From: a virus
Direction: 5' to 3' (one strand)
Length of the DNA: 64,000 nucleotides
Virus record (IMG/VR): IMGVR_UViG_3300003323_000724
Location: 39,940 to 103,939 of that record
This document shows positions 6,439-31,849 of this stretch, one piece after another. The notes below the pieces were generated by a model. That model was given only the letters and a program-made list of their open reading frames with translations. It searched no databases and was not told the origin of the DNA. The position numbers and the translations under genes are program-made. Position 1 is the stretch's first letter, and each line of letters begins with the position of its first letter.

Positions 6439-6672
6439 ATGACCAAGAAGCTCCCGGACGGGACGGAGATTGAGTACACGGTAGCAGATTCATATGGCGG
6501 TCCCGGCAACTGTTTTTCAAATTTGAATATCAACCACAACGTAGTGTTTTGGCGATTGCCGCAGACCACTTGGGTTTCGACTCAGCACAGGAACATGCAT
6601 GGGTTCACGGAATGGTTGGATTGTTGTGAGACACACTGGAGGATTTCTTGGAAGGAGAAAAGGAATGACTAG
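6439..6672 (+). CDS. hypothetical protein
   Basis: overlapping start, RBS. Confidence 0.5.
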   Translation: MTKKLPDGTEIEYTVADSYGGPGNCFSNLNINHNVVFWRLPQTTWVSTQHRNMHGFTEWLDCCETHWRISWKEKRND

Positions 6673-7615
6673 TGAAATCGATCTGCTGAGGGCGTATGCG
6701 GCCAAGCCGGAAGAGGAGGAGTTCTATCGCGGGCTGCTCCTCGATTACTACTTGGAGAACGATCCGGAGCGAGCGGAGTTCCTGAAGCTTCACAGTCAGT
6801 TAAAGGGAATGAATTGTCCGTTGCATCTTTGCACTAAGCCACTGTTTGGTGCTGACAAAAGATTCAACTGGGCTGGGACTTGTACAGAATGTACTAAAGA
6901 TTCGTGGTGTGTGTTCCATTCGGTTGAACAAGACATTGAATTGATTCTCCAAAAGAATCGCGATCGGTGGCTTCGGGTCCGCTGTCCCGAGTGCATTGCG
7001 GGCCGTGTGGTTGACGTCTCCACCGGAACCCGATCGGGCTGCAAGACGTGCATGAGTACCGGTGACCTATGTCGGTTCACCCACCCCGGAACGGCCAGTC
7101 AGGACCAATTCGATGTCGAGCGGAAGAACGGGTTCCCGTACAAGGTGACTGGGGCTAAACACGCGGACGTGTTTAGGCAGATGACCAAATTGACCGAAAC
7201 CAAATGTAAGGACTGCAACGGTTATGGGCGGGTGCGTAACGATTGGTTTGCTGGGGATGAGGGAAGCCGAAAATGCGTTCGTTGCGAAGGAATGGGACGT
7301 TTTGCCGGGTTCTCAAGTTTCTACTGGGAGCCGACAGAGGTTGCGGTTGCGTGGCTGACACACCACCCGACAGTGAGGGAGATCGAGGTATCTGATGTTA
7401 GGCCATTGAACGTAAGTTGGATGCCGGATATGCCCCAAGTGTTCCGGAACGATAACTGGGAACCGCAGAGCCATTGGTGGATCGTCGGGGAAGTTTATGA
7501 CCGTATGGAAACGGACAGTCTGGACACGCTGGGGACCGGGGTGGTTGCCAGAAGGTGGAACCGCCAAGACCACAGTCGGGCTGTGGCGGACTGGGTGCGA
7601 TCATTCGTGAAATAG
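6665..7615 (+). CDS. divergent TIGR02996-like domain protein with CxxCxGxG zinc fingers
   Basis: N-term LLRAYAAKPEEEEFYRGLLLDYYLENDPERAEFLKL; CPEC/CKTC and CKDCNGYG/CVRCEGMG. Confidence 0.65.
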   Translation: MTSEIDLLRAYAAKPEEEEFYRGLLLDYYLENDPERAEFLKLHSQLKGMNCPLHLCTKPLFGADKRFNWAGTCTECTKDSWCVFHSVEQDIELILQKNRDRWLRVRCPECIAGRVVDVSTGTRSGCKTCMSTGDLCRFTHPGTASQDQFDVERKNGFPYKVTGAKHADVFRQMTKLTETKCKDCNGYGRVRNDWFAGDEGSRKCVRCEGMGRFAGFSSFYWEPTEVAVAWLTHHPTVREIEVSDVRPLNVSWMPDMPQVFRNDNWEPQSHWWIVGEVYDRMETDSLDTLGTGVVARRWNRQDHSRAVADWVRSFVK

Positions 7616-7682
7616 CCAGATTACGAAATTTAGTTACTTAGGCTCACCTAACCCGACGGAATACTGTATTTTGCAAAGCCGC

Positions 7683-7713
7683 TTGACAATGGCCGATCGT
7701 GTGGCACAGTTGG
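7683..7713 (+). promoter_or_regulatory. phage repeated promoter, copy 1 (probably leaderless transcript)
   Basis: TTGACA-16 nt(...cgtgtgg)-CACAGT-tgggc-ATG(7716). Confidence 0.65.
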
Positions 7714-7715
7714 GC

Positions 7716-8108
7716 ATGGAAACGACAACTACTAAAACGTGTAAGCAATTGTATGATGCTAACCCCGTCTTCCGCGAGATGGTGGACGTATGGGTAGAAC
7801 ACCGGTGGTGCCCGGCCGAGATGCAGGATGTGCTCTTGGAGGAGGGATTGGAGCACGCGGCGGACTGCGCTAAGTGGTGTTACGAGACGGAGGAGCGGGA
7901 GGGTCAGATTGATAAAGGCCCCGGTAGAGTTTACCCCTATTGGGTAGCCTGGAAATCGCACTGGTGGGTGAGAGAATGTCAAGACTACTTTCCTCATAAC
8001 AAAGTACCCCCAAAGAACTTACCGTCGGTGAATGATGAAATGTGGAAGCACAGCAACCACCGAGAGGCAATCCTAGCCCTTCTCGACGCATGGAGGATCG
8101 CCCAGTGA
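7716..8108 (+). CDS. hypothetical protein (degenerate 'D.L.E.G' helix)
   Basis: ATG directly after promoter; QDVLLEEGLEHAAD. Confidence 0.55.
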   Translation: METTTTKTCKQLYDANPVFREMVDVWVEHRWCPAEMQDVLLEEGLEHAADCAKWCYETEEREGQIDKGPGRVYPYWVAWKSHWWVRECQDYFPHNKVPPKNLPSVNDEMWKHSNHREAILALLDAWRIAQ

Positions 8109-8368
8109 GTCCCGAAGACGCAGCGGCCAGGGCGTGGGAACTGATGCTCCAAGAAGAGAACCCGATGCCGCCCGCGATCGCACGGGACTGGGTGATGGAG
8201 CAGTTGGGGTGTGAACGTGATAAAGTGCTTGAAATTCTAGTGAATCAGGCACATGACAGACTTAAGAGTTCTCGCCCTGATGAACATGATGCCAACGTTG
8301 TGTTGGACAAGATTCGCAAGAAACAATGGGAAGAAGCAGAACGACCAGTCTTAAAATACACACAATAA
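8105..8368 (+). CDS. hypothetical protein
   Basis: GTGA overlap, GGAGG RBS. Confidence 0.55.
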   Translation: MSPEDAAARAWELMLQEENPMPPAIARDWVMEQLGCERDKVLEILVNQAHDRLKSSRPDEHDANVVLDKIRKKQWEEAERPVLKYTQ

Positions 8369-8380
8369 AGGAGTTACAGA

Positions 8381-8871: not shown

Positions 8872-8897
8872 CCGCTGAGTTCCCTTTGGGGTACACT
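8868..8897 (+). promoter_or_regulatory. sigma70-like promoter upstream of terS
   Basis: TTGACC-18 nt-TACACT. Confidence 0.4.
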
Positions 8898-8938
8898 ATC
8901 TCCTCCCGTACCCCTTATTTTGCAGTGATTTAGTTCTC

Positions 8939-9712
8939 ATGGCGAACAAGAAGAAGCTCGAATGGACCCCGCAGGTTCCCGGTGAGATCGAGTATGACAT
9001 CGATCTGACGGAGGAGGAGGTTACGTTCATCAAGTGGTACTGCATAAAGCCAAACGTGGCTTACGCTTACCGCAAAACACATCCCGAGTGCAAGCAGCGG
9101 ATGGAGCTGGCCTGGAAGCGGGGCACGAACCTCTATAACCGCCCCCACGTTCGCAAGGAGATCGACGCGGCCCAGAGCGCGGTTGCGATTACGAAGGACT
9201 TGAGGACTGATGAAACCCTCATGGAAGTGAAGGCGATTGCGTTCTCGGACCCTATTGACTTGTTTGACGAGAAGGGCCAACCACTCCCACTACATGAAAT
9301 ACCGTTCGAGGTGCGTAAAGTCATTAAGGGTTTCAAGTTACGGTCAACCAAGACGGAAACGATCAGCAGCGGGAAGAAGACGAAGAAGGTCACATACGAG
9401 ATCCTCGAATATATCCCTTACGACAAGATCGACGCATTGCAAATCATCTGCAAGCACTTGGGGATCAACAAGGAGATCCCGCCTTTGGAGGCGCTGATGA
9501 ACTTGCTGCCCAAGAACGTAGCGGAGAAGTTGCGGAAACTGCTTGCTGGGGAAGTAGTTAAGTCACAAGAACAGAGAAAAGAACCGGAGGAGAAAAAGAA
9601 TGGACCGGCCGCTAGTAGTGCTCAGCAAGAAGACGGGGTACGGCAGAACTCCGGACACGGCGACGGTGTATGTGAACCGGGAGGGACTGGCGGACTTGAA
9701 GAAGTTGATTGA
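8939..9712 (+). CDS. terS: terminase small subunit
   Basis: N-term AYAY HTH-like region, IAFSDPIDLFDEKG..LPLHEIP, YDKIDALQIICKHLG (Terminase_2-like). Confidence 0.8.
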   Translation: MANKKKLEWTPQVPGEIEYDIDLTEEEVTFIKWYCIKPNVAYAYRKTHPECKQRMELAWKRGTNLYNRPHVRKEIDAAQSAVAITKDLRTDETLMEVKAIAFSDPIDLFDEKGQPLPLHEIPFEVRKVIKGFKLRSTKTETISSGKKTKKVTYEILEYIPYDKIDALQIICKHLGINKEIPPLEALMNLLPKNVAEKLRKLLAGEVVKSQEQRKEPEEKKNGPAASSAQQEDGVRQNSGHGDGVCEPGGTGGLEEVD

Positions 9713-9941: not shown

Positions 9942-9944
9942 CTA

Positions 9945-10202
9945 ATGATAATCGACCGCTTGCTCGGAGTGATGTGGATCGACACGGGAAATCAGCGTTT
10001 TTACTGGAAAACCCCACCAGATTACTACGAGTGGGGCGGTCCCAAGATCGTCCGAGAGTGGCAGCGGTTCACATCGAATTTTACCCACAAGCCCCGGTGG
10101 ACGTTCTTGCAGACTGGTGCCGGGGGCGAGTTCGTGCCGGCGGATCAAGTGGACTGGTGGACCGAAGCAATGAAGGAAACACATGGAAACCAACACGATT
10201 GA
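9945..10202 (+). CDS. hypothetical protein
   Basis: operon position. Confidence 0.5.
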   Translation: MIIDRLLGVMWIDTGNQRFYWKTPPDYYEWGGPKIVREWQRFTSNFTHKPRWTFLQTGAGGEFVPADQVDWWTEAMKETHGNQHD

Positions 10203-11202
10203 CCTGCTCCGGGAAATCATCCTGAACCCGGACGATGACGCACTGCGGCTCATCTACGCGGACAAGATCGAGGAGGATGATCCGAAGAACGCGGACCGGG
10301 CGGAATTCATTAGGTTGCAAGTAGAACGAAGCAGACTAGAGGACCAAGAGTGCAAATACGACTGTCGATCGCGGATCGATTATCGATGCAAATGGTGCAA
10401 TTCCATCGATAAGGGAGATGGATTACTAGGCCGAAACCAGCAATGGTGTCCGTGGACGTGGGACGACAATCAGCGGACTCCTTTGCCTGTTTTCTGGTCC
10501 CGTGGTTTCATCGAATCGATCTCAGTTCCGGCGGACGTGTGGATCGCGAATCACTACAAAATCGCGTGGAACGAGGGGCAGGCCACGTGGTGCCCAACGT
10601 GTGCCGGCAAGTGCGGACACATAATGGGGACTTCGGACCAGTATCGGAGTCCGGCCAATTGCATGACCGAAGGAGAGTTTAAACGGGACGCGGGTAAAGG
10701 ATGGAGGTCCCTAAAACCGCATCCGACTTGGAAACGATGTGAGCAATGTGACGGCGGAAGTGTTCCGCGACCGTTACCCAAAACCGCCCACCCGATTCGG
10801 AAGGTGGAAATCACGACGAGTCCGGCGATTAACCATGAAAATGCTCGTGATGGGCGAGAACGTGCTTGGTCTAGCTGGGGGATTTTAAAGGAATGGTTGG
10901 ACCCTAGACCTTATCCAAACGGAGGGTATTTTCCTCCCGACCGTGTTTTTGCGGTGTTACAGCAGGGTTGTGAGTATTGGTGGCCCCGCATCGAATTTAC
11001 GTTCCGAGAGCGGCCGTGGGAAACAGAAAGACATTGGGTGAATGTGAACTTTGGTACTGGGGGTAGGACGGACTGGGTAGAGGCGGGAGAAGCCATTTTG
11101 GTGGGTCATCAAATTGCCGCAGATTCGCAAGGCAGAGCCGTCCGTGTTCGTGTCGGTGATTACATTGTTGGTCACGCAATTTCAAACTCCCAGACGCGAT
11201 AA
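10183..11202 (+). CDS. TIGR02996 domain protein with zinc fingers and C-terminal decoration-like beta segment
   Basis: LLREIILNPDDDALRLIYADKIEE...RAEFIRLQVE; WSRGFIESI; CxxC pairs. Confidence 0.8.
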   Translation: METNTIDLLREIILNPDDDALRLIYADKIEEDDPKNADRAEFIRLQVERSRLEDQECKYDCRSRIDYRCKWCNSIDKGDGLLGRNQQWCPWTWDDNQRTPLPVFWSRGFIESISVPADVWIANHYKIAWNEGQATWCPTCAGKCGHIMGTSDQYRSPANCMTEGEFKRDAGKGWRSLKPHPTWKRCEQCDGGSVPRPLPKTAHPIRKVEITTSPAINHENARDGRERAWSSWGILKEWLDPRPYPNGGYFPPDRVFAVLQQGCEYWWPRIEFTFRERPWETERHWVNVNFGTGGRTDWVEAGEAILVGHQIAADSQGRAVRVRVGDYIVGHAISNSQTR

Positions 11203-11226
11203 TCCCTTCGCTTCCCCAATCATTTC

Positions 11227-14200
11227 ATGCTAAACTGGCTCCATTGGGACACTCAACACCAACTCGGAGCCAGTTCGATGGCCGATCCGTACCGCCTACC
11301 CGTCTGGGACTACTCCGGGACGTTCGCTCAGGGTAAGTTTTTAGAACCCATCAAGCGACCGGACGGTAAGTGGTATTGGGCATCTGCCCTAACCCAGCCT
11401 AGACACCAGCTCGAAAACAAGGCCGAACTGACGGACTTCCTAGGCATTCATCCGGACAGCACTGACTTCGGTTCGCACCACATCGATAGCCATTTAGGTC
11501 AACCACTCTCCTCACAGCACGTCTGGATGCACACGGGGGGTGCCGAAGGCGAACCCCCCGTGTTGGAGCAACCGGACTGGCGTCCAACGGATACAATTCC
11601 GGAAGACTTTTACGCTTACGAGGCTGCAAACGGCCCTAGCTTCGCACAGGAAGAACAAACTCAGCATCAGATAGGCAACTGGTCAGCGGGGCAACAAAAC
11701 GCAATAGAGACGCAATACGGCGATTCTGGGCAGCACCCACTTGCGGATGAGGATGGTTGGTTGGTTCAGGACGAATCGAATCCCGTGGAGTTGACCAAGC
11801 TCGGACACGACGACCACTTGCGATATCTTCGTCCGTACCACAACGGTCACGATTGGGTTTGGCGAATTCATCGAATGGAACCGGAAGCAGCAGATTGGCT
11901 CGCACTCACTGAGTTGTTCGGAAAAGATCCCATGCATATGACTCCGGAAGAATTCAAGCACATTGGAACTCCGGACCATCAGCACCGACCCCTGACTCCG
12001 GACGAGAGGATTGTTGCCGGAATCGACCCAATGCCGGAAGTCGATTGGCGCCCCAATGAAACCATTCCCGAAGACTTTTACGCGTTTTCCCGTGGGGAAT
12101 CTCCCGTGAACTACAACTGTTACTCGTTCCACGACGTGATTGCCAAGCTCCAGCGGGCGGACCAGCCGGTTACGTACAACGAAAACGCATTCCTCGAACA
12201 GATCCGTCAGAACCCCAATGATTTTACAAACAGGGCCGTCTTTGCGGATTGGCTAGAAGATCAGGAACACCCGGACCGCAACCTGTTGGACGCCCTCCGA
12301 TCGCACCAAGGGTTCGGAACTATCAGTCGAACCCCCCAAGGGTTTCACCTCGATACCCGTTCCCGCGCCCAACAGGTCGGCGAACGGGTCGGTCGGGCGA
12401 TGGCCGAATCCGCTGCTCAGTTCGGAGATGACCTGCGAGACAGTCCGAACGGGTTTGAATTGGACTCACAGGACGCAGACCAATTACACGCGGCCGGCAT
12501 AGAGTTCGGTTCTCCCGAGTGGAGGGAAGCAGAAAACCATGCCGAACGAGCGTTTTTGGAACATTTTAACCCCCCGACACAAAACGACGGGGATGAAGGA
12601 ATGGTTGATTACGGCTGGTCCGCTCCTCTCCGAACGCGGCCAAAAACGAATGCGTTGGCCCAGTTTCATGCGCCGGGGTACGAAGTGATTGAGGACCAGC
12701 CGCAGCAGATGCAATGGGAAGAGGGCTTACTGCCCCCAACGGCCGTTTCCAAGCACCCCACGCAGGAATTTGCAGGCCAATCACTGCGGCCGAACGAACA
12801 GGGAACCGTGTGGGACAATCCGTTCCAGCCGTGGGGACAGGACTATGAGCCGGAAACGGGACTGTTTCAGCTCCCTTATGCGGAACAATTGGACGACGGG
12901 ATGTTCGATCAGGAAGGGTTTTTGTTGACTCCCAAAGGAGCGAGCCGTCGTGCGGTCCGGGGTATTCACTTCGATCCCGAAGTTGGGAATTATCGACTTC
13001 ATGGGTACTGGATCAATCGGGACGATCAGGGCAATCCGCAGTGGTGGAGCAGAGGACCATCGATGTGGAAAGGACCGTCTCCCGAACACATTGAGGGCAT
13101 GATCTACGAACCGGGGGACACTCGGGATCATATGCTTTTCGGTGAAAATCCGGATCGAACCCCTGTTTCTCCCGAGCACCTGTGGGCACTTGGATTAGGG
13201 GGCCAACCGCCGCAAGCCCCCGACGCACCCGATTGGAGAACTCCTGACACAGTTCCAGAGGACTTTTATGCGTACGGGAGGGCTGATTACGGCTGGGGCC
13301 AAACTCTGAAGTCTGCGTTCGATCTCGGTAAGCAGTACTGGCCCCAGATCGCCGCAGCCGCACCGCACGCTTGGAACGCAGCCAAGTCTTGGTGGAACGG
13401 AGAAGAAGGATCGTCCCAGCACGCCCAAAACGCTTGGGATTCTTGGAACTCGGCTACGCAGAACGATGATGATGGGGACATGGTAGGGTATGGCGACTTG
13501 TCATCCGAAAAAGCACGGGAAATTCTACATGACGGGACCGTTCACGGGCACCCGATCACGGACAAACAGAGGCGATTCTTTGGGTGGAAATCGCACCAGA
13601 CGGATTATGCTGACGAACTGAACCAGGACGAGAACAATGCGTTCATCCAAACCATCCACGCAAACCCGCTGGATGCAACGAATCACCTCGTTCATTCGGA
13701 CTGGCTCCGGGACCGGGGGCACCATGATGAAGCGGAGTTCCGACAAGCGATGGGGGAATGGGTGAAGGGTTGGAACAGGATTCAAGATTTGCACAAACCC
13801 AGATTGGACCCGGATCGACCTTGGATGGTTCCGTTATCGTTTCTTCCTGGTGGAATAGTTGCCGATAACCTCCCTGGTGCAAGATTTACTGTAGCCCGTG
13901 ATTACACGGAGCAGGCCAGACAACTGGACCCTCACACTGGAATGCGATTTAGAGACACGTATCACTACCCCTCCTACCCCCACATGGAAGAAGCCTTCCG
14001 CCGGGCCTTCCATCAGGGTCGAGGGGAACAAACCCAAGCCTCGATGTACGCCGATCCGTACCAGTACCCGAGTTTCACCGATATGAGGCTCCCGCCGGCC
14101 ACTCCCGGGACGGGCGAAATGCTCGATCCCGTCCAACTCGGGTTCACCCAGTGGACCGCACCGGGCGGACTCGCACGCATCGCCGGGCCACAGTTCATGC

Positions 14201-16290
14201 CTACCGATTGGCACTCTCCGTCAATCATGTGGAGCCAGCCGAACGGGGAGGACTACGACCAGTTCGGCCAAACTGCCGGCGATCGTGGGGAATACGCACG
14301 GGCGGACTACTTCCTTCCCGCTATTGCAGCCGCAGCGGAATCGTTAGCTCCGGCAATGGCTCGATCTGCCACAATCGGAGCTGCTTCGGACGCGGCCGGG
14401 GACCTGTTTGGCGGTGGTGATGACCAGCAAGACTACGCAGCCTACGGAATGGCCCAGTACGGCGATGAGGAAGACAACCAAGCGTTCCTGAACGCAATCC
14501 ACGCCAACCCGCTCGACGCAACCAACCACCTCGTTCACGCAGATTGGTTGGACGAACGGGGGCAGCACGGGGAAGCGGCGTTTCGGCGGGCGATGGGGGA
14601 GTGGGCTGCGAGAACCAGTCCCCATCTTCTGGACGTTACTCCATCTCGTGTCGAAGGAACTCACGGAATTTCGACACGAGCAATTCCTTCGTGGGTCAAC
14701 GGGAGGATAGGAGTATCCTCAACAAGCTCCGATCCAAATATCGGCTACTCCCCTAATTCCCTTTGGACTTATTTCCACGGGTTCGGTCCAATGGAAGAAG
14801 CCTTCCGCCGGGCCTTCCACGCGAACCAAAACACGGTCCAACCGGGCCAAATACCCGCCGATCTGGGGGACGACAGCGACGTGAGGATGGGTGGGGGCGA
14901 ACAACCGGTTGAGTTTGCCGCTTACAGCCAGATACACACCACTCACCCCGATGACGAGTCCGGCTGGGGCGAACCGGACTTTCGCCGGGAGGACGAGATT
15001 GCTAACTGGGTGAGTTCCCCGATCCCGCACCCGCACGACAACTTTCCGGGGACGCCGAGCGCTTACGCCGGCCACGTCAACCAACCCAACTGGGGCAACG
15101 TTGACGGAATCATGCGGGCGATTCCCGAGAACAAGTTCGTCGGTGGGAAGTACGGGTACAAGTCCGCTGCGAACTACGAGGGCGAAGAGGAAGCCTTTCA
15201 ACAGGCCATTCACCAGAACCCGTTCGAGTTCGTTAACCACGGGGCATATGCGGACTGGCTCCGAGAGCAAGGAAGGCACGAGGACGCCGATTTCCGAACG
15301 AACATGGGGGAATGGATGCAATCCCGGGCAGCGGGGCATGATAATGGATTTCTTCCCGTGCCGACAGTCGTTCGGCACACGGAAGCCCCGCAGTGGGCCA
15401 AGGGGAAGATTCGCATCGAGAACATTTTCACGCCCCATGCCAAAGACGCTCCGTTCCGGTGGGACTCGCGACACGTCGGGTGGGACAGTTACCCGCAGAT
15501 GGAAGAGGCTCTCCGACGTGCGCACGATTTCGTCGGTCCTCCGGTTCAGCAACACGAAGAAACACCGAACTGGTTCCGAGATCGGGAGTACCTAAGTAAT
15601 GATGCCCATCCGATGAACTACGAGCACGACTGGATGGGGCCGACGGACTATGCTCCACCGGAAAGTCTCTATGCTGCTTACGGCGATCCGGGCGACAACG
15701 GCACCACCGCATCGGCCGGGAACACGCAGGAGTGGAACTACCAGCCGAAGAATTATTGGGAAACAACCCGGTACGGCGATTTGACTTCGATGGAATATGG
15801 GGCATATTTGGGGTACGCGGACGATCAGTACGAAGACGAGCACCAGCCCGAATCGGAGATTCCAGTGGAAGAAACTACCCCGACCAGACCAGAGTTGTTA
15901 AACGGTGCTTTGGTTTCTGCTGCACTCAAGCCGTCTCGTAAGCGGGGGCCGAACGTGGGCCAATTTGATCGGGCTGCAATGGGAGCACTTGGAGACCACC
16001 TCCAAGAAATCGGGAATCCACTAGGAGTTGCCGTTTCCCATTTCGTCCGAACCGGACAGAACATCCCGTTTTCGTCCCTGTCGGGAACTTCGGAACACGA
16101 AGTGTCAACGGCCGATGGTTCACACCAAGTGTTCGGTCGGCGTGGGATCAGTCGAGACGGGAAGCCGATTGTGTGGACTGTGATTAAGCAAAACAAACCA
16201 CGCCAACACCCAGACGGACGAATTATTTGGGATAGTGACAAGTCCCACAGTTTTGCTGTTCCGGCTGAGTTGTTCGACCAACCACAATAA
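11227..16290 (+). CDS. 1687-aa modular repeat protein with four TIGR02996-like modules (putative head-packaged polyprotein)
   Basis: long ORF between terS and terL; repeats AF...I..NP.D..N..V.ADWL x4, DWRP..TIPEDFYA x3, MEEA.RRA x3. Confidence 0.8.
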   Translation: MLNWLHWDTQHQLGASSMADPYRLPVWDYSGTFAQGKFLEPIKRPDGKWYWASALTQPRHQLENKAELTDFLGIHPDSTDFGSHHIDSHLGQPLSSQHVWMHTGGAEGEPPVLEQPDWRPTDTIPEDFYAYEAANGPSFAQEEQTQHQIGNWSAGQQNAIETQYGDSGQHPLADEDGWLVQDESNPVELTKLGHDDHLRYLRPYHNGHDWVWRIHRMEPEAADWLALTELFGKDPMHMTPEEFKHIGTPDHQHRPLTPDERIVAGIDPMPEVDWRPNETIPEDFYAFSRGESPVNYNCYSFHDVIAKLQRADQPVTYNENAFLEQIRQNPNDFTNRAVFADWLEDQEHPDRNLLDALRSHQGFGTISRTPQGFHLDTRSRAQQVGERVGRAMAESAAQFGDDLRDSPNGFELDSQDADQLHAAGIEFGSPEWREAENHAERAFLEHFNPPTQNDGDEGMVDYGWSAPLRTRPKTNALAQFHAPGYEVIEDQPQQMQWEEGLLPPTAVSKHPTQEFAGQSLRPNEQGTVWDNPFQPWGQDYEPETGLFQLPYAEQLDDGMFDQEGFLLTPKGASRRAVRGIHFDPEVGNYRLHGYWINRDDQGNPQWWSRGPSMWKGPSPEHIEGMIYEPGDTRDHMLFGENPDRTPVSPEHLWALGLGGQPPQAPDAPDWRTPDTVPEDFYAYGRADYGWGQTLKSAFDLGKQYWPQIAAAAPHAWNAAKSWWNGEEGSSQHAQNAWDSWNSATQNDDDGDMVGYGDLSSEKAREILHDGTVHGHPITDKQRRFFGWKSHQTDYADELNQDENNAFIQTIHANPLDATNHLVHSDWLRDRGHHDEAEFRQAMGEWVKGWNRIQDLHKPRLDPDRPWMVPLSFLPGGIVADNLPGARFTVARDYTEQARQLDPHTGMRFRDTYHYPSYPHMEEAFRRAFHQGRGEQTQASMYADPYQYPSFTDMRLPPATPGTGEMLDPVQLGFTQWTAPGGLARIAGPQFMPTDWHSPSIMWSQPNGEDYDQFGQTAGDRGEYARADYFLPAIAAAAESLAPAMARSATIGAASDAAGDLFGGGDDQQDYAAYGMAQYGDEEDNQAFLNAIHANPLDATNHLVHADWLDERGQHGEAAFRRAMGEWAARTSPHLLDVTPSRVEGTHGISTRAIPSWVNGRIGVSSTSSDPNIGYSPNSLWTYFHGFGPMEEAFRRAFHANQNTVQPGQIPADLGDDSDVRMGGGEQPVEFAAYSQIHTTHPDDESGWGEPDFRREDEIANWVSSPIPHPHDNFPGTPSAYAGHVNQPNWGNVDGIMRAIPENKFVGGKYGYKSAANYEGEEEAFQQAIHQNPFEFVNHGAYADWLREQGRHEDADFRTNMGEWMQSRAAGHDNGFLPVPTVVRHTEAPQWAKGKIRIENIFTPHAKDAPFRWDSRHVGWDSYPQMEEALRRAHDFVGPPVQQHEETPNWFRDREYLSNDAHPMNYEHDWMGPTDYAPPESLYAAYGDPGDNGTTASAGNTQEWNYQPKNYWETTRYGDLTSMEYGAYLGYADDQYEDEHQPESEIPVEETTPTRPELLNGALVSAALKPSRKRGPNVGQFDRAAMGALGDHLQEIGNPLGVAVSHFVRTGQNIPFSSLSGTSEHEVSTADGSHQVFGRRGISRDGKPIVWTVIKQNKPRQHPDGRIIWDSDKSHSFAVPAELFDQPQ
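13984..14819 (+). repeat. exact 29-nt direct repeat (13984-14012 and 14791-14819) closing two TIGR02996 modules
   Basis: atggaagaagccttccgccgggccttcca occurs twice. Confidence 0.9.
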
Positions 16291-16292
16291 CC

Positions 16293-17915
16293 ATGTCCGC
16301 CAACACATCCGATCTTGCCAAAGCACTGGCCCGGGTCTACGGCTCACGGGCCGTAGACCGCCTCGTTTCCACGCCCGTCGCCAGTTCGGACGACATGGCG
16401 AAGTACCACGACGATCCGGTGGGGTTCATCCGCGATGCGTTTGGAATAGACCTGACAATGCCGCAGTTGAACGCGGCATTGGCAATGCCCGGACGAATTA
16501 AAATCAATTCAGGGCACGGGTTAGGTAAAACTCTCCTGTGCGCCGCTCTTGCCATTTGGTGGTACGCGACCCGGAATCCCGGCGTGGTCATCATTACCGC
16601 ACCCACCAGCCACCACATCACTACGGTTCTGTTTGCTGAAATTAGACTCCTGCTCGCCAAGTGTCGTATTAAACTGCCCGGGACCCTGTCGCCCAAGGCA
16701 CCCCTCTTGTACGACTCACCGGAGCACTGGATCGAAGGATTTACGAGTTCATCGGGGGAAGGTTTCCAAGGTCGTCACCGCGCGAGCATGTTTTTCATCT
16801 TTGACGAGTGCGAAGACGTAGACGCGGTATATTGGCAAACTACCGAAACGATGTACAAGGACGGAGAAGACCATGCTTGGCTTACCGTTGGTAATCCATT
16901 AACAACGTCTTCGCAAAGCTACCTTGAAGACTTGGCCGAACGGGAGGACGGAACGCCGAAATGGAAGCAGTACGTATTGTCCTCGATGGATCACCCCAAC
17001 ATCATCGCTCAACTCAATGGTGAACCACCGCCGATACCCAACGCGGTTACGCTTCACCAAGTTAACCAGTGGGTCAAGGACTGGACCGATCCGGTTCAAT
17101 TTGGCGACATCAAGCCATTGGACTTCGAGTGGCCCGTAGGATCACAGAAGTGGCGCAGACCATCCCCGATCTTTAAGGGCCGCGTTCTCGGCATTCGACC
17201 GACGGAAGGGGTTGATACGGTTTGGGGCGCCGTTGTGTGGCAAATGGCCACGACACGAACTGCTAACCCCTCCGCTTGTTGGTGGGGCGAATACGGTATT
17301 ACAATTGGTGTGGACGTTGCTATGTTCGGGGACGATTCAACGGCCATTCACCTTCGCAGTGGTCCGATGAGTTTGCTGCACGAGGAACACAACGGCTGGA
17401 CACCTCAGCAAACGGCCGGTCGTCTGAAGGACTTGTGCGTTGAGTACGCTGACGTTTACAACTCGTGGGCGGTGATCCCCACTCGTCCGCGACTGGAACC
17501 GTCTGACGTTAGCGTAGTTATCGAAGTGGATGGGTACGGGTATTCGGTACTGTCACACTGTGACGGGTTTGGTAACTGGTCCGGGTTTAAGGCCGGGGAA
17601 GCATCGACCGCTTTGGACCATAAGGGCCAGCCCCGGTACACGAAAAGACGGAGCGAGATGTGGTTCACCGGTAAGGAAAAGGCTATGGGGGGCCAAATGG
17701 ACCTGTCGTACTTACCCCAAGACGTGTTGCAGAAACTTCGACTGGAACTGATGTCGTCCATGTATTGGGCGACATCATCGGGGGCAATTCAGGTCGAAGA
17801 GAAAGTGGACATCAAGAAGCGGCTGAAAAAGTCCCCAGACGGGGCCGACGCACTGCTAGTTTGCTACGCGGACGTAACTTCGGATCTTCCAATGGCGATA
17901 ATCAGGGGGGAGTAG
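16293..17915 (+). CDS. terL: terminase large subunit
   Basis: SGHGLGKT Walker A, ITAPT, FQGRH, FIFDE Walker B, VGNP, GVDVAMFGDD nuclease, SPDGADAL. Confidence 0.95.
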   Translation: MSANTSDLAKALARVYGSRAVDRLVSTPVASSDDMAKYHDDPVGFIRDAFGIDLTMPQLNAALAMPGRIKINSGHGLGKTLLCAALAIWWYATRNPGVVIITAPTSHHITTVLFAEIRLLLAKCRIKLPGTLSPKAPLLYDSPEHWIEGFTSSSGEGFQGRHRASMFFIFDECEDVDAVYWQTTETMYKDGEDHAWLTVGNPLTTSSQSYLEDLAEREDGTPKWKQYVLSSMDHPNIIAQLNGEPPPIPNAVTLHQVNQWVKDWTDPVQFGDIKPLDFEWPVGSQKWRRPSPIFKGRVLGIRPTEGVDTVWGAVVWQMATTRTANPSACWWGEYGITIGVDVAMFGDDSTAIHLRSGPMSLLHEEHNGWTPQQTAGRLKDLCVEYADVYNSWAVIPTRPRLEPSDVSVVIEVDGYGYSVLSHCDGFGNWSGFKAGEASTALDHKGQPRYTKRRSEMWFTGKEKAMGGQMDLSYLPQDVLQKLRLELMSSMYWATSSGAIQVEEKVDIKKRLKKSPDGADALLVCYADVTSDLPMAIIRGE

Positions 17916-18063
17916 GGCTTCCCGGTGGTACCACCGGAGCGGGCGGCATCACAATTGGCGGTGTCGGGTTCACCGGCTCTGGGGAACCGGTGGGATCTTC
18001 GGGCTGGGCACCGACGGGGTTGATCCGGTCGTCTAGGACTTCGAGTTGCGGTTTGAAGTTCAT
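17902..18063 (-). CDS. 53-aa Pro-rich micropeptide with planctomycete-type export motif (not in ORF track)
   Basis: MNFKPQLEVLDDRINPVGAQPEDPTGSPEPVNPTPPIVMPPAPVVPPGSPTPP; TAATG coupling to the upstream minus-strand gene. Confidence 0.6.
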   Translation of the reverse strand: MNFKPQLEVLDDRINPVGAQPEDPTGSPEPVNPTPPIVMPPAPVVPPGSPTPP

Positions 18064-18281
18064 TAGGAATTTGAAGTATTCGTTGTGATTGATTTAGCGT
18101 TGACGCAGACCAGTTTGGCCTTTGTCGCTTCCAACAATTGACTAGTGTATCGCCGCAGATCAGCGACATCCTGAGAGGTAATTAGCTCAGGATGATTAAG
18201 CAATTCGGCGATCCGCCTATCGCCGCCGAGCAAAACAATAGTGTCGTGGAGACAATGCAGAACTTCCGTCATCAATTTCAC
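18063..18281 (-). CDS. hypothetical protein
   Basis: GGAGGAG RBS downstream of promoter copy 2. Confidence 0.6.
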   Translation of the reverse strand: MKLMTEVLHCLHDTIVLLGGDRRIAELLNHPELITSQDVADLRRYTSQLLEATKAKLVCVNAKSITTNTSNS

Positions 18282-20162: not shown

Positions 20163-20163
20163 C

Positions 20164-20349
20164 TCACTTCCCTCCGTTAAGGATTCGGTCCACTAGTTCG
20201 AGCACGTCAAAGGGACCGGCCGCTTCCAGTTCCCGGACGATCCCGACGATTTGGAGCCGCTCGGCCGTCGTAGCGTGCTTCCGAACGTCCTCGATCAGCC
20301 GGTCCGTCTCGGTGCGGATCTGGGCGACGATTTCAGGTGACGCGAACAT
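20164..20349 (-). CDS. hypothetical protein
   Basis: first gene after promoter copy 3, GGAG RBS. Confidence 0.5.
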   Translation of the reverse strand: MFASPEIVAQIRTETDRLIEDVRKHATTAERLQIVGIVRELEAAGPFDVLELVDRILNGGK

Positions 20350-20375
20350 TCGTTGTCTCCAGTTTCGGACGCACA

Positions 20376-20405
20376 CAACTATGCACCACGATCGGGGAGA
20401 GTCAA
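20376..20405 (-). promoter_or_regulatory. phage repeated promoter, copy 3 (divergent pair)
   Basis: TTGACT-16 nt(...cgtggtg)-CATAGT-tg. Confidence 0.7.
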
Positions 20406-20420
20406 ATTCGATTTCCCGAT

Positions 20421-20450
20421 TTGACTTCTCGGAACCGCGTGGCATATTTG
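20421..20450 (+). promoter_or_regulatory. phage repeated promoter, copy 4 (divergent pair)
   Basis: TTGACT-16 nt(...cgcgtgg)-CATATT-tg. Confidence 0.7.
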
Positions 20451-20679: not shown

Positions 20680-20915
20680 CGCAAGCCGACCGAGCAATGT
20701 ACGACGCCGGCAACGTATTTTGCGAAACGCGCAAAGCACTGGTGGATTTGGCAACCAAGAAGGGCATCAAGGACCGAGTGGTTTTTATGGTTGGCCGTGT
20801 CGCGTGGTACATCGACCCACCGAAGTCCGCCCGGAACTACGAGCACGACAACGGATTAGACGGATGGGTAATCAGCTTCGGTTCTCGGCCGGAAGAGATC
20901 GAGGTGATCGAATGA
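20676..20915 (+). CDS. hypothetical protein
   Basis: ATGA overlap, AGGAG RBS. Confidence 0.55.
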   Translation: MTQADRAMYDAGNVFCETRKALVDLATKKGIKDRVVFMVGRVAWYIDPPKSARNYEHDNGLDGWVISFGSRPEEIEVIE

Positions 20916-21517
20916 GTGTGCTCAAAGGATTAATGCGGAACATCTGCGAAAACCCGTTCGATGACAACGCTCGGCTCGTACTGGCCGATTACTTCGATGA
21001 GAACGGAAAGCAATGGCACGCGGATCTGATTCGGTTGCAACTGCGAAAACCTAGTTTCCAAGAGGTTTACGATTTTGCAAAGGGACTGGGGACGAATCCA
21101 GAACCGAACCGAGAGTTCGGGGCATTTTACTTTGCCGAACTGGGGTGGATGTCTTCTCCCCTGCACCACTCGCACATTGTCAGCCGGGGTTTAATTGGGG
21201 GCATTCACACCGATACCAACACATTCCTTCGGTCCCCCGAGTTGGTTTTCACTAAGAACCCGATAGTTCACGTAGTGTTCCAAGACGTTTGGCCGTACAT
21301 GGGTAGCGGTTCCCCCCAACTGCGAAGGACGACCAAACCAAAACCAATCGGCAGTCAAACTTCTTCGGTTCCTGCTGTGATTTATGATCGACTGCCGAAA
21401 GGACGTAACAGGTTCCGAACGCGACAAGACGTGACTCGGCTCCTTAGTCGGACCGCTGTGGATTACGGGCGAGAACGAGCGGGGCTGCCAAAACTGAACT
21501 GGGAGGACGAACGGTGA
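20912..21517 (+). CDS. TIGR02996 domain protein
   Basis: LMRNICENPFDDNARLVLADYFDENG...ADLIRLQ; SRGLI; NPIVHV. Confidence 0.85.
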   Translation: MSVLKGLMRNICENPFDDNARLVLADYFDENGKQWHADLIRLQLRKPSFQEVYDFAKGLGTNPEPNREFGAFYFAELGWMSSPLHHSHIVSRGLIGGIHTDTNTFLRSPELVFTKNPIVHVVFQDVWPYMGSGSPQLRRTTKPKPIGSQTSSVPAVIYDRLPKGRNRFRTRQDVTRLLSRTAVDYGRERAGLPKLNWEDER

Positions 21518-22077
21518 GCGACGGGGACGCACTTTTGAAGGCGATACTTGCGAACCGGGACGATGACACACCGAGACTGGTGTACGCGGACTGGTTAACT
21601 GAGAACGGACAAGAGGCGAGAGCGGAATTCATTCGGGTGCAGGTGGAATTGATGCGTTGGTTGAAAGAGAACTCAGAAAGCCCCAATCGTGACCCAGACA
21701 TTTATGGAGCGAGGGAAGGAATTTCTCGCATGAAGCAATTGTGGAACCTTCGAGCTTACCCACCCGCACCTAAAGGATTCATTGCTTGTTTGGCCACAGA
21801 TTATTTTGGATACCTTCCTTCGCACCGAGTGGCAGTTTACCGAAGAGGGTTTCCCCATCAGATTTACTGCCCCACTGAAGATTGGTTGGAGTGTGCTGAC
21901 GTGGTGTTTGGTCAATATCCAATTCAAAAAGTAAATCTAACTACTCACATCCCACTGGGCAACCTATTCGATCTGTGCCGAAAGGCAGGATTGGGGGAAT
22001 ACCCCGGGAACCGGATTTCGTTCCATGAAGAGATCCTTGGCGGTATCTGGAAAGGGATCAAATTCACACTCCCTTGA
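21514..22077 (+). CDS. TIGR02996 domain protein
   Basis: MSDGDALLKAILANRDDDTPRLVYADWLTENGQEARAEFIRVQVE (near-consensus); YRRGFP; YPIQKV. Confidence 0.92.
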   Translation: MSDGDALLKAILANRDDDTPRLVYADWLTENGQEARAEFIRVQVELMRWLKENSESPNRDPDIYGAREGISRMKQLWNLRAYPPAPKGFIACLATDYFGYLPSHRVAVYRRGFPHQIYCPTEDWLECADVVFGQYPIQKVNLTTHIPLGNLFDLCRKAGLGEYPGNRISFHEEILGGIWKGIKFTLP

Positions 22078-22283: not shown

Positions 22284-22820
22284 ATGGGAAAGTTAACTCG
22301 GTTCCAAGACGTGGACCGGTTCACGCGAGACGGGAGTTGGGAATGTGACTACACCCCGGACCGTCTAATTAAGCAAATCGATGATTGGGTGGGAGAAGAG
22401 AAACTAAATATGGACCCGGACTTCCAACGGGGACACGTTTGGACCGCGAAACAACAAACGGCCTACATCGAGTTCTACCTTCGCGGCGGGAAAACCGCTC
22501 GGGTGATCTACTTCAACAACCCAACCTGGAACCGAGACTGTGACGACTATCGAGATTTCGTAATCGTTGATGGTCTCCAACGGGTGACCGCGTTTCGGAC
22601 GTTCATCGAGAATCGAATCAAGGTGTTCGGGAGCTATTACCGAGAGTACACGGACAGTTTCCGAATGGGACTGAACACGGTGCGGCTGAACGTGAACGAT
22701 CTGAAGACCCGGGCCGAGGTGCTTCAGTGGTACTTGGATTTCAACACCGGTGGCGTGGTCCACACGGACGCGGAGATCCAACGGGTTCGGAAACTGCTCG
22801 AAGCGGAGAAGGTCAAATGA
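22284..22820 (+). CDS. stand-alone DUF262 (ParB/Srx-like, GmrS-type) domain protein
   Basis: PDFQRGHVWT..QQ.AYIE, IVDGLQRVTA, FNTGG. Confidence 0.85.
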   Translation: MGKLTRFQDVDRFTRDGSWECDYTPDRLIKQIDDWVGEEKLNMDPDFQRGHVWTAKQQTAYIEFYLRGGKTARVIYFNNPTWNRDCDDYRDFVIVDGLQRVTAFRTFIENRIKVFGSYYREYTDSFRMGLNTVRLNVNDLKTRAEVLQWYLDFNTGGVVHTDAEIQRVRKLLEAEKVK

Positions 22821-23807: not shown

Positions 23808-24227
23808 ATGAGCACCGAGTTGAAGCTAGGCCAACTGATTGAGGGCAACCCACAGCGGGACGCCATTCACATCGCCGTGATTCCGATGGTGGCGATTAGG
23901 ACGATGAAACCGGGTGAACACCTGAAGAACGGGTGCGTAGACCCATTCCTGAATGCTCCAGTGCAGCCCGGACAGCGGTTTTGGCTGTTTTTGTATCCGA
24001 ACACAGTTACCAGCCTGCGGCACGTCTGGGAACATGCCGCATTTCCCACGGAACCGGAACTGCCCGAGAAGCGGCGTTCCGAAGCGGACGTGTGGGCCGA
24101 ACAGACGGTGCTGATGGACCAACCGGGAACGTTTACCACAGTGGACTACGCGGACCTTCCGCCGATGACGGAAGAGATCAGGGACAGCATCGTTGAAGTG
24201 TGGGAACGGCAAGGGAGGACCAAGTGA
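23808..24227 (+). CDS. conserved phage hypothetical protein
   Basis: RDAIHIAV, VDPFL..PV.PGQRFWLFLYPNTVTSLRHVWEH. Confidence 0.65.
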   Translation: MSTELKLGQLIEGNPQRDAIHIAVIPMVAIRTMKPGEHLKNGCVDPFLNAPVQPGQRFWLFLYPNTVTSLRHVWEHAAFPTEPELPEKRRSEADVWAEQTVLMDQPGTFTTVDYADLPPMTEEIRDSIVEVWERQGRTK

Positions 24228-24733
24228 ACATCGAGAACTTGAAAATCGATCCCAAGTGGCGGACCCAGACCGTTGTGGACCTGTGCTTGGCCATGCGAGA
24301 AACGCAAGACTTCTCCGCGATGCCGATTCTGGCAGACGCACTTCAGGAAGCGGATTGCGGGGATGAAACGTTACTTCAATTCCTTCGCAATCCGACAGGG
24401 ACGTATGCGATTAAGGCCGGAGTCGTTGGGTTAGTAACGAGCCAAGACACGGAGGAAGCAGTTCTAGAACTCCATGACTTTGGTTCAAACGGTTATGACT
24501 GCCCTGATTATGAAATACTCGTCAATGCTGCTTCAGGGCATCACAAGGAAAACAAAATTACGGGGGATGAATACGGATGGATTCACAGCAAAAATGACGG
24601 CGAATACTTGTGCTTTGGGGGCGTCGACGCGCACGGGGATATTCCAGATCGGTTCTGGGATTTGGTGCAGAAGGCCACGGGAAAAGTAATTCATCGAAAC
24701 GATCGAGCTAAATACTTCTCCTGTTCCTGTTGA
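24224..24733 (+). CDS. Gemmata-type 'WRT.TVV...MPILADALQEA.C' domain protein
   Basis: DPKWRTQTVVDLCLAMRETQDFSAMPILADALQEADC; C-terminal YFSCSC. Confidence 0.75.
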   Translation: MNIENLKIDPKWRTQTVVDLCLAMRETQDFSAMPILADALQEADCGDETLLQFLRNPTGTYAIKAGVVGLVTSQDTEEAVLELHDFGSNGYDCPDYEILVNAASGHHKENKITGDEYGWIHSKNDGEYLCFGGVDAHGDIPDRFWDLVQKATGKVIHRNDRAKYFSCSC

Positions 24734-29760: not shown

Positions 29761-30428
29761 ACGTCGAAAACGAATTGGATGTGCTGGGAAGGTATCAGGA
29801 TGAACCATTACACAAAATCGCCGAATCGATCACAGAAGAGGTCCGGATTTGGACACATTTGACAGATGCTTACATTCTTGGTGATTTGCTTCAGGAACAA
29901 GACAAGGAATTGGATTTCGTTTCAGGACGAAACTATACTTGGTGGTACATGATTTCGGATCACTTCGACCCCAGTTCCGTTGTTGAAATCGGGACGCGGT
30001 TTGGTTACGGGTTGAAAGCCGTTCATTCGGGGTTTACTTACGACCGCTTGATGCGGATTCACGTTTTCGATTCCGAGTGCAACCCCGGCGACAAGGAACC
30101 GCTGAAAATATTCGAGGACTACTTCCGCAACCGTCTGGGGATTACTGATCTGCGCATCAACCGTGTAGACACCCAAACGCTAACCACGCTTGGGGTCACC
30201 GAGCCGGTTGACATGGCGATCGTGGACGCGGACCACAGCGAAGCGGGCTGCTACCACGACTGCTGTCTCGCGTGGGAAGCTCTGAAACCGGGCGGCGTGC
30301 TTGTGGTAGACGATTGCAATCCGGGGGAGCCGCAGCGGGCCACGGAACGGTTCTGCCGCGAACGGAACCTGGAATGGGCGTTTCTTCCCTCACTGCGGGG
30401 GATTTACTTGGTGCGAAAGGAAGGATGA
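29757..30428 (+). CDS. class I SAM-dependent methyltransferase (Methyltransf_24-like)
   Basis: VVEIGTRFGYG, IVDADHS, LKPGGVLVVDD. Confidence 0.85.
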   Translation: MNVENELDVLGRYQDEPLHKIAESITEEVRIWTHLTDAYILGDLLQEQDKELDFVSGRNYTWWYMISDHFDPSSVVEIGTRFGYGLKAVHSGFTYDRLMRIHVFDSECNPGDKEPLKIFEDYFRNRLGITDLRINRVDTQTLTTLGVTEPVDMAIVDADHSEAGCYHDCCLAWEALKPGGVLVVDDCNPGEPQRATERFCRERNLEWAFLPSLRGIYLVRKEG

Positions 30429-30429
30429 C

Positions 30430-30747
30430 ATGGCGGAATCAGACAAGAGGGACTATTCAGATTTTCTGGAATACTGCCATCGAGTCAGTGAAATCGTAAA
30501 AACTTGGCCGGCATGGAAACAAGAAGTATTAGGTGGAAAAGCAGTGCAACAAGCAACCCAAGAACAACCCAAGGTGATCGACGCAACGAAGCGAATCATC
30601 ATTTTCTACTACCCGGCCGAGGATGAAGGAGCCAAAGGACGAGCGGAAAAGAACGCTGCTCGAATCCAAGGTGCCGGAACTCTCGTGGTTTCCCGACCGA
30701 CAACATACACTGGTCCGATGGTTGAAGCGATTGACCCACCAAAGTGA
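30430..30747 (+). CDS. hypothetical protein
   Basis: operon position; SEIVKTWPAWKQ. Confidence 0.55.
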   Translation: MAESDKRDYSDFLEYCHRVSEIVKTWPAWKQEVLGGKAVQQATQEQPKVIDATKRIIIFYYPAEDEGAKGRAEKNAARIQGAGTLVVSRPTTYTGPMVEAIDPPK

Positions 30748-30754
30748 GGAATTT

Positions 30755-31039
30755 GTGGAACCCAAAGAACTGAAAACTCTCGCTCGCCGGGCACAAAGTC
30801 TCGCGTCCGGATTCGCCCCACTCCAAAACGACAAGGGGATTTCTCTCCCCAGTCGCTTGTGGCTCCGGGGTGTTGACCAAATCCGGCACTTCCTGTTCGG
30901 TTACCGGAACAAGGAACTGTCCCCCCGGTTCGTGGCCGAAGTCACGAACGCACTGCTGTCCTGCGGTAACGTCCTCGAATCGATCGCCGACGGCAAAATT
31001 GTCGTCAAACCCGAAGAGGTAAAAGAAAGTGTCAACTGA
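30755..31039 (+). CDS. hypothetical protein
   Basis: GAGG RBS before GTG 30755. Confidence 0.45.
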   Translation: MEPKELKTLARRAQSLASGFAPLQNDKGISLPSRLWLRGVDQIRHFLFGYRNKELSPRFVAEVTNALLSCGNVLESIADGKIVVKPEEVKESVN

Positions 31040-31280
31040 ACTGAACCCGGCCCAAGACTTGACCGATCCGAAGGTTCTTACCCAGAACCTCGACATGCTG
31101 GCCGAAGGGTGCGCTCAGCAAATTCTCGTCGCCAACAGCGTCCTTCCGATCGGCGGACACAGTGACCCGAAATACTTCTACGCCAAGATCCAAGCAACGC
31201 TGCAAGCGGCCAGTCGGATGATTAAAGAGCACCTGATGACGACGGCGGAACAACAAGCCAAGAAGGAAGTGAAGAAATGA
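31029..31280 (+). CDS. hypothetical protein
   Basis: overlapping start. Confidence 0.5.
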   Translation: MSTELNPAQDLTDPKVLTQNLDMLAEGCAQQILVANSVLPIGGHSDPKYFYAKIQATLQAASRMIKEHLMTTAEQQAKKEVKK

Positions 31281-31849
31281 GCATCGAGCGAACAGACAAT
31301 ATCGGAATGCTGGCTCGGAAGTTGGCTGGAACCGGAGGGGAAGTTCCGGATTTTACAGCCGGACCACTGCTGGTAGACGCTTTGTTGGAAGCGGGGGACC
31401 AGCAGATCGCAATGAAGCTCCAGTACCACATCGGAATGTTGATGGGGTATTTGGTTTCAGACAACCTGGACGAGATCGACCCAAGACAAAAAGTCCGAGT
31501 CTTGGCGGATCTCAGCAGTGCTGTTCGAGAAGTATGTTTGCCTTTGATTCTTGACTTCAACTCAGTGTGTAATGATTTGGCTGGGTTTGTGGCTAAATTG
31601 AGCGAAAATACCAAAGTTGAGGCTAACGATATTAAGCTCCAAGTAGTCAAAATTAAGGTTGGCTCAAGGGTTCGGTTGGGTAACCACGTTACTATTGACG
31701 AGACTCGCCAAGGTGTTGTGGTTTCCAATCCGGACGAGAACGGATTCGCAAACGTGATGCCCCTCGAAGACGAAACCAGCGTAGTGGGGTATCCGACTGA
31801 TGGTATGCCTGTGGGGATGATTCCGATGACTCGAACCAGTCGGTGGTGA
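31277..31849 (+). CDS. hypothetical protein with 'LLVDALLEAG' helix and C-terminal SH3-like segment
   Basis: ATGA overlap; KVGSRVRL...GVVV. Confidence 0.5.
   Translation: MSIERTDNIGMLARKLAGTGGEVPDFTAGPLLVDALLEAGDQQIAMKLQYHIGMLMGYLVSDNLDEIDPRQKVRVLADLSSAVREVCLPLILDFNSVCNDLAGFVAKLSENTKVEANDIKLQVVKIKVGSRVRLGNHVTIDETRQGVVVSNPDENGFANVMPLEDETSVVGYPTDGMPVGMIPMTRTSRW

Follow-up and report, generated by a model that had tools for sequence, protein, structure and literature searches.

The IMG/VR virus record IMGVR_UViG_3300003323_000724 encodes a family of proteins built on the TIGR02996 domain, and this study analyzed these genes in a 64,000-nucleotide stretch of that record (the window; bases 39940-103939 of the 103,939-bp linear record, for which CheckV estimates a completeness of 77%). 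Judging by the encoded small and large terminase subunits (TerS and TerL), Mu-like portal and J-like tail fibre, the virus is a large tailed phage, and the window is its packaging and structural half. The results tentatively suggest, with a confidence that stays short of even, that the phage keeps a long-standing, diverged TIGR02996 multigene family whose products may act with or beside the packaging machinery.

The copies were identified with the NCBIfam model TIGR02996.1, a 45-position hidden Markov model (HMM), applied at its curated cut-off of 29.05 bits to all six frames of the record. Ten domains in seven proteins of the whole record scored above the cut-off, including seven domains in four proteins of the window (34.6-84.5 bits); none of the seven positive frames contains an internal stop, and no match above the cut-off was obtained in 14 control genomes. 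An initial annotation of the window had listed TIGR02996-like heads at 6665, 10183, 20912 and 21514 and four more in a 1687-amino-acid (aa) protein. Seven of these pass the HMM; the head at 6665 fails, but its gene is a diverged paralog. The family members are as follows:

6665-7615, plus strand: diverged TIGR02996 paralog with a degenerate head (8.8 bits, E-value 0.22, below the cut-off)
10183-11202, plus strand: TIGR02996 protein of 339 aa with its head at 10204-10329 (45.5-49 bits), Cys-rich inserts and an 'SRGF' hairpin after the head
11227-16290, plus strand: giant protein of 1687 aa with four heads (34.6-52 bits each, 136 bits summed over four stretches)
12181-12279, 13630-13740, 14473-14601 and 15184-15294, plus strand: the four heads of the giant protein
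20912-21517, plus strand: TIGR02996 short form of 201 aa with its head at 20927-21046 (42.5-46 bits)
21514-22077, plus strand: near-consensus TIGR02996 short form of 187 aa with its head at 21520-21651 (81-84.5 bits)
13972, 22868 and 33123 in record coordinates: passing copies upstream of the window

The genes at 20912 and 21514 form a tandem pair in which the stop of the former overlaps the start of the latter. The 6665 product contains CxxC Cys-rich zinc-ribbon inserts with weak matches to DnaJ-type zinc fingers, an 'NGF' hairpin and the element 'PTVREIEVSD', and it is colinear from residue 1 with a record paralog at 13966-14877 (BLASTP E-value 3e-7 over 264 columns), the colinearity spanning the zinc-ribbon region up to a common 'PT.(R)E(I/V).VSD' element. 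Because the head of that paralog passes the cut-off, the 6665 gene is taken as a true family member with a decayed head. The 10183 product is 30% identical to the same paralog (E-value 2e-11), and overall the TIGR02996 paralogs of this phage are only ~25-40% identical to each other while keeping the core residues.

The short 'LAD.L.E' helices that had been counted as further relatives fared less well, with those at 7716, 25096 and about 15960 being unsupported by any profile. A profile of this phage's own heads found nothing at 7716, 25096 or 31277, and neither this profile nor TIGR02996.1 placed a domain at about 15960, within the giant protein, where the profile of a second family discussed below (MPILADALQ) gives only a 14-residue stretch inside a match of E-value 0.64 for the whole giant protein. 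The helix at 8381 is ambiguous, with an E-value of 0.0065 to the phage-head profile and 0.062 to the MPILADALQ family, and the one at 19525 matches the profile of this phage's heads weakly (E-value 0.16). The loose motif [LIVM][AV]D.[LIVMF].[EDQ] occurs ten times in open reading frames (ORFs) of at least 75 aa, compared with 2.1 +/- 1.4 in shuffles, a surplus that is attributed to the genuine family members.

The product of 21514 retrieved 768 homologs, many at 100% coverage, and aligns end-to-end with hundreds of 170-270-aa proteins from metagenomes, viral contigs and hosts. These proteins follow a common plan, in which the head leads through a variable linker, often rich in Cys, to an invariant Arg-Gly ('RGF'), an 'HPV..V.LTT' strand and a C-terminal 'WPGI.F.LP'; 21514 conforms fully to this short form in its end-to-end alignment and its conserved R111-G112, P136 and W179. 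The 20912 product has the head, an 'RGL' ('SRGL' hairpin) and the Pro, but a different C-terminus, and the 10183 and 6665 products have a head-equivalent and an RGF/NGF element with inserts. Therefore, the earlier description of the heads as attached to unrelated variable bodies does not hold, as 21514, 20912, 10183, 6665 and the record copies at 13966 and 22856 have a common RGF-type hairpin-and-helix element after a variable insert.

The companion claim that all copies are without leucine-rich repeats (LRRs) was confirmed, with no Pfam LRR family found at an E-value of 0.1 in any copy of the window. Many homologs of similar length carry the LRR family PF13516, and NCBIfam lists TIGR02996.1 as a model of the kind 'domain' with its cut-off set on the head alone, an LRR partnership being usual and not required. 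On the sequences compared, the lack of LRRs is no phage-specific truncation, as LRR-less short forms are also abundant in host genomes.

The AlphaFold model of the 21514 product (61 homologs) is one compact domain, with a predicted local distance difference test score (pLDDT) of 91.6 and a predicted template modelling score (pTM) of 0.84, composed of four helices, a beta-hairpin at the RGF site and then alternating helices and strands. The proposal of a head acting as a free adaptor is at odds with this model, in which head and body are packed together. The head superposes on 1.5 units of the tetratricopeptide repeat (TPR) at 1.1-1.5 A over 48-49 residues (Z 5-6 against the PDB, a value reachable by chance for short helical motifs), and nearly all of its top 50 PDB rows are TPR proteins; Pfam reported no TPR match in the copies. 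With the whole 21514 model, Foldseek returned no match at an E-value of 0.001 or better in the PDB and BFVD, and VIA-align returned no whole-domain match and only short TPR-like or generic helical matches (Z up to 7.2, residues 1-88), the alpha/beta body not having been searched alone. A PDB sequence search with the ORFs 21514 and 24200 also gave nothing usable. One head position is an invariant Arg in the RGF subfamily and a nearly invariant His in a second subfamily ending in 'MEEAFRRAF', a switch consistent with the head touching the closing element. From the predicted models, the 45-aa TIGR02996 head is read as a TPR-like three-helix unit that supplies the N-terminal third of a domain split by a variable insert; as far as could be found, this split-domain reading is undescribed.

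The host TIGR02996 ('rpt_mate_G_obs') proteins of Gemmata, Fimbriiglobus, Frigoriglobus, Singulisphaera and Isosphaera have the same 45-aa head above the cut-off and the same 'RGF' hairpin and 'HPV..V.L' element, and 21514 aligns end-to-end with Gemmataceae and Singulisphaera members. The phage copies differ in having no Pfam LRR, whereas the host domain continues into leucine-rich repeats, and in their zinc-ribbon inserts (three copies), the four heads of the 1687-aa protein, the roughly 10- to 30-fold density and the terminase-side position. Within PHROG 18306, the first ~47 positions match the heads of 21514 (E-value 6.6e-5) and of the giant protein (E-value 1e-11), whereas the rest of the 242-position profile does not match. 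Relative to TPR proteins, the head resembles 1.5 units of NrfG, PilW, APC3, OGT and designed TPRs, but it is a single unit closed by a beta-hairpin, with no array and no further repeats.

In the giant protein encoded at 11227, three of the four heads lie within modules of ~130 aa that end in 'MEEAFRRAFH', and the 'DWRPTDTIPEDFYAY' motif is present three times. A second motif, 'PDWRPTDTIPEDFYAY', also occurs three times (residues ~93-137, 255-293 and 646-687) and has no family match. A full-length search with the 1687-aa protein found no homolog beyond its own record, and the ESM Atlas gave no usable match. A profile built from its three modules reached 538 cluster representatives, which fall into stand-alone proteins of 130-180 aa and giants that have up to 14 heads in 0.9-3.7 thousand residues. 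For a stand-alone member, AlphaFold (pLDDT 82) again predicts a three-helix head, which is followed by a disordered insert, a small hairpin-bearing sheet and, as the closing element, a long helix with 'YRxMEEAFRRAF'.

The module profile was not found at an E-value of 1e-10 in 151 Gemmatales genomes, whereas it reaches that value in 136 metagenomic cluster representatives. By this distribution the MEEAFRRAF subfamily seems to belong to phages, or at least not to cells. No match to the giant relatives P0142 and P0138 was found in IMG/VR, and PHROG annotation of the genes neighbouring a stand-alone small-module gene returned nothing. Phages and conjugative elements also encode polyvalent proteins, giant proteins that combine several enzymatic or anti-defence domains. 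The 1687-aa protein does not show this make-up by Pfam, which detected no family there or in three giant relatives of 2499-3549 aa. As far as could be found, the giant multi-head proteins are an undescribed class.

A possible link of the family to packaging comes from the position of its genes. In the window, the space from TerS to TerL is taken up by the genes at 10183 and 11227, the stop codon of the giant gene lies 2 bp before the TerL start, and the 20912 and 21514 pair sits 3 kb downstream of TerL:

8939-9712, plus strand: TerS (PHROG 51, E-value 2.8e-11)
16293-17915, plus strand: TerL, 540 aa (PHROG 2, E-value 9e-14)

The TIGR02996 products were themselves considered as small terminase subunits, a possibility that was ruled out because the phage has its own TerS and none of them matched a TerS profile. 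In three related virus records (100-112 kb; TerL 37-54% identical), TIGR02996 genes lie both upstream and downstream of TerL, and in one of these phages TerL is directly followed by a gene of the MPILADALQ family. These relatives came from a wider genome search; this phage's TerL as a single-protein query gave no match in IMG/VR. In the 101.6-kb relative, the TerL (minus strand, 16235-18232; 665 aa) aligns to that of this phage in two pieces, residues 7-283 and 274-535, suggesting an insertion of ~125 aa that is possibly an intein or domain insert.

A broader sample was drawn from IMG/VR with two exact peptide patterns, which gave 90 confirmed stretches, of which 80 viral loci were kept. All ORFs in their 3-kb flanks were clustered (the TerL result comes from plus-strand ORFs only), and the sole real recurrent family was the large terminase, with 22 members in 22 loci; the sampled TerLs match four PHROG families (979, 38, 2 and 15). 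In 19 of the 80 loci, no more than 650 bp separate the head from a TerL gene on its strand; TerL comes first in 14 of these, follows the TIGR02996 gene in 4 and overlaps it in 1, and two viral loci run TerL, TIGR02996 and portal directly in sequence. Against an assumed 5% chance, which is an estimate and not a measured control, this adjacency has a binomial p of ~1e-8. TerL is nearby in 2 of 80 cellular loci, one of which is the same Gemmata provirus that IMG/VR lists. As far as could be found, the terminase-flanking position of TIGR02996 genes is undescribed.

The initial view that TIGR02996 is expanded in this phage and is of host type was upheld: ten copies per 104 kb compare with 20-83 per 6.5-9.3 Mb in five Gemmatales genomes, a density ~10-30 times higher, and the best cellular relatives belong to Gemmata, Fimbriiglobus, Frigoriglobus, Singulisphaera and other Gemmatales or Isosphaerales. 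Because the closest cellular relatives sit in these orders, the likely host range is Gemmatales/Isosphaerales, that is, Gemmata-like planctomycetes. The TerL and portal of this phage gave no match in five Gemmatales genomes, and therefore no related prophage is present there.

Additionally, five other virus records (100-176 kb) have 2-16 TIGR02996 matches each, and the family occurs on at least 60 different IMG/VR contigs; going by these counts, its carriage is a general trait of such phages, beyond this one. The short form's closest clusters in the ESM Atlas are 50-69% viral, and the LRR-less short form appears from these sequences to be a widespread and mostly viral family. A tree of 202 family members intermingles viral and cellular copies, and its 28-31 label changes show exchange of the family between phage and cellular genomes, as far as a poorly resolved tree without a reliable root can be read. 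The paralogs of this phage form no clade in it, and its resolution is insufficient to separate duplication within the phage from repeated acquisition. Searches of 50,697 deposited phage genomes by tblastn with 21514 and two giant-protein modules gave no match. A full-text literature search found no paper for 'TIGR02996' or 'repeat-companion domain', and the PADLOC-DB 2.0 defence models at an E-value of 0.01 matched none of four phage and five host-type proteins of the two families.

The second host-expanded family, MPILADALQ, is indeed also present in the phage, and both proteins assigned to it are genuine (24224-24733 and 63598-63999). The accompanying suggestion that it is related to TIGR02996 was not supported, with an hhalign probability of 0.8% over 12 columns. 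Host members have ~220 aa, and their C-terminal ~65 residues carry an invariant W...MPILADAL core. With the family profile, five Gemmatales genomes yielded 18-125 copies each, this record yielded two, and a related phage up to eight matches. The helix at 31277 is borderline, reaching an E-value of 0.0033 (13 bits) with the MPILADALQ-module profile over 967 ORFs and not being recovered by the profile search of the record at 0.01. The genes in question are:

23808-24227, plus strand: barrel half of a split PHROG 11912 protein (= PHROG 17232; E-value 2.7e-24 to PHROG 11912 and 8.4e-18 to PHROG 17232)
24224-24733, plus strand: MPILADALQ module (24233-24448; E-value 1.1e-33) capping the helical half of PHROG 11912 at its N-terminus
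31277-31849, plus strand: possible degenerate third MPILADALQ-type N-terminus (borderline)
63598-63999, minus strand: host-type MPILADALQ protein with Ala/Asn/Tyr repeats followed by the C-terminal module (E-value 9.7e-32), cut by the record end

The overlapping genes at 23808 and 24224 form a split version of a two-domain phage protein (PHROG 11912/17232) that has a Cys-x-Cys end, 23808 being the barrel part and 24224 the C-terminal end. The latter matches the last 45 positions of PHROG 11912 (E-value 6e-7) and ends in Ser-Cys-Ser-Cys, and four of its close homologs also end in (S/T)C(S/G)C. The 63598 gene includes a 12-bp tandem repeat (63888-64000, ~10 copies) whose minus strand encodes the Ala/Asn/Tyr-rich stretch; because the record ends within this repeat, its right end is probably an assembly break and no genome end. 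In the host-type genome of Gemmata sp. IIL30, at least 14 MPILADALQ copies lie within ~110 kb of contig C2 (~370-480 kb). The TIGR02996 arrays lie elsewhere (C1 693-755 kb and C2 859-876 kb, among others); each family forms genomic islands of its own.

The mechanism that would follow from the preferred reading starts from the small domain. The TIGR02996 head would pack on a downstream beta-hairpin and helix ('RGF...' or 'YRxMEEAFRRAF') giving a single small domain with room for a large variable insert such as loops or zinc ribbons. The products would be protein-binding accessory proteins that all use the conserved core as a scaffold or shared docking surface and differ in target through their inserts. 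The copies of the phage would be co-produced with the DNA-packaging genes and work on, or next to, the terminase and portal, the giant protein would string several cores on a single chain, and the unrelated, host-expanded MPILADALQ family would ride along in a similar position.

Several points weigh against a role in packaging. The position of the genes is indirect evidence and could instead result from a module boundary being a hot spot for insertions; three of the seven TIGR02996 genes of the record lie far from the packaging genes, and the 80 viral loci are not independent, since at least two pairs are duplicates, while the adjacency statistic depends on an estimated null. The TerL-side copies of related phages are not positional orthologs (10183 best matches a downstream copy of the 101.6-kb relative), which suggests turnover. 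Additionally, dozens of host copies are unconnected with packaging, so that the core fold is not terminase-specific.

The location of the genes is explained nearly as well if they are passengers (morons) at a recombination hot spot, moving between Gemmatales and phages and gathering at module boundaries such as terminase flanks, with no packaging role, no single common function and a small, varied benefit per copy or none. This is held to be unlikely. The mixture of viral and cellular copies in the tree with its 28-31 label changes, the missing clade of this phage's paralogs, the lack of positional orthology, the scatter of copies over the non-structural half of the record, and the use of the same kind of slot by the unrelated MPILADALQ family in one related phage are all in line with it. 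The ten intact heads that keep an invariant core despite deep divergence argue, however, for purifying selection; adjacent TIGR02996 genes are seen with four TerL lineages and, in four related phages, on either side of TerL; and a 5-kb multi-head gene would be a costly passenger. A phage-first history, which is quite doubtful, would make the short LRR-less protein originally a gene of the phage packaging module that hosts captured from prophages, fused to LRRs and amplified. Since the nearest Atlas clusters are mostly viral, hosts may have acquired the gene from phages; the preferred phage position on at least 60 viral contigs, the inclusion of the head in PHROG 18306 and the distribution of the MEEAFRRAF modules (136 metagenomic cluster representatives but none of 151 Gemmatales genomes at 1e-10) point the same way. 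Opposed to this are the tree without reliable root or resolution, the finding that just 2 of 80 cellular loci resemble prophages, and the absence of a match among the deposited phage genomes; as a historical claim, it is also silent on what the proteins do.

The immune mimicry favoured by the initial annotation is rather improbable. The LRR-less phage copies would co-assemble with host TIGR02996-LRR conflict or sensor proteins or occupy their docking site, or, in a variant, the host proteins would detect late products of the phage, the terminase among them, and the phage would make decoys alongside the trigger. TerL is a common target of bacterial sensors, as in the Avs systems, and the copies adjoin TerL. 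Both families have undergone lineage-specific expansion in hosts (20-83 and 18-125 copies), as conflict genes typically do, the density of TIGR02996 in the phage is 10-30 times higher, the phage copies retain the head without LRRs according to Pfam, and the 21514 head nearly equals the best host heads (84.5 vs ~92 bits). Yet no evidence connects the host family with defence, with no PADLOC match for either family and no paper found; LRR-less short forms are plentiful in hosts themselves; identity between phage and host copies outside the head does not exceed ~45%; and the head is predicted to be packed in a closed domain and not exposed as a free module. A more specific version, which we consider very unlikely, would treat head and hairpin as a docking module common to planctomycete TIGR02996-LRR sensors and the phages they watch. 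Host LRRs would detect late phage proteins (terminase, portal), and LRR-less, multi-head versions from the packaging operon would saturate or mislead the sensors. If so, the giants with 4-14 heads would represent a new kind of multivalent counter-defence scaffold.

Returning to a TIGR02996 family acting with or beside the packaging machinery, known systems provide analogies of limited reach. HNH proteins adjoin phage terminase genes and in this respect resemble the TIGR02996 genes as accessory genes that recur next to TerL across lineages; the analogy is one of position only, and no nuclease motif was found. Giant viruses and intracellular bacteria contain expansions of repeat proteins (ankyrin, F-box, LRR), to which a virus with many copies of a host-type protein-binding module is similar, as a pattern only. 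To our knowledge, no ubiquitin-type machinery is known in these hosts. The TIGR02996 family is already catalogued (NCBIfam, PHROG 18306) but uncharacterised, and TIGR02996 and MPILADALQ, both functionally uncharacterised, belong to the largest paralog families that Gemmata-like planctomycetes have. The phages offer handles on them in the form of a small, confidently predicted domain, the candidate partners TerL, TerS and portal, and a subfamily not found in 151 Gemmatales genomes. A partner of the phage copies, if found, would probably explain the host expansions too.

The remaining annotated genes of the window include the following:

18-5634: gp32-like single-strand DNA-binding protein, RecA-like protein, 5'-3' exonuclease and RusA
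32773-35763: Mu-type portal, 996 aa (Pfam, PHROG)
50794-55635: J-like tail fibre (PHROG)

Directly after TerL, between plus-strand blocks, seven small minus-strand genes lie back-to-back (18359-20445); none has a family match, and one of them (19525-19911) contains the weak look-alike 'ALADWLEDE'. Just past the TIGR02996 tandem pair, a 178-aa gene (22284-22820) has only an N-terminal DUF262/GmrSD_N domain (Pfam E-value 7e-10) and also matches PADLOC NsnA, PD-T4-2_A and PHROG 1583; it represents a defence-type nuclease/NTPase domain in a phage, without the usual C-terminal half. The portal is much longer than its Pfam portal domain (residues 247-476), with weak GNAT acetyltransferase matches near the C-terminus (E-value 0.017), and may be a fusion of a portal and an extra domain.

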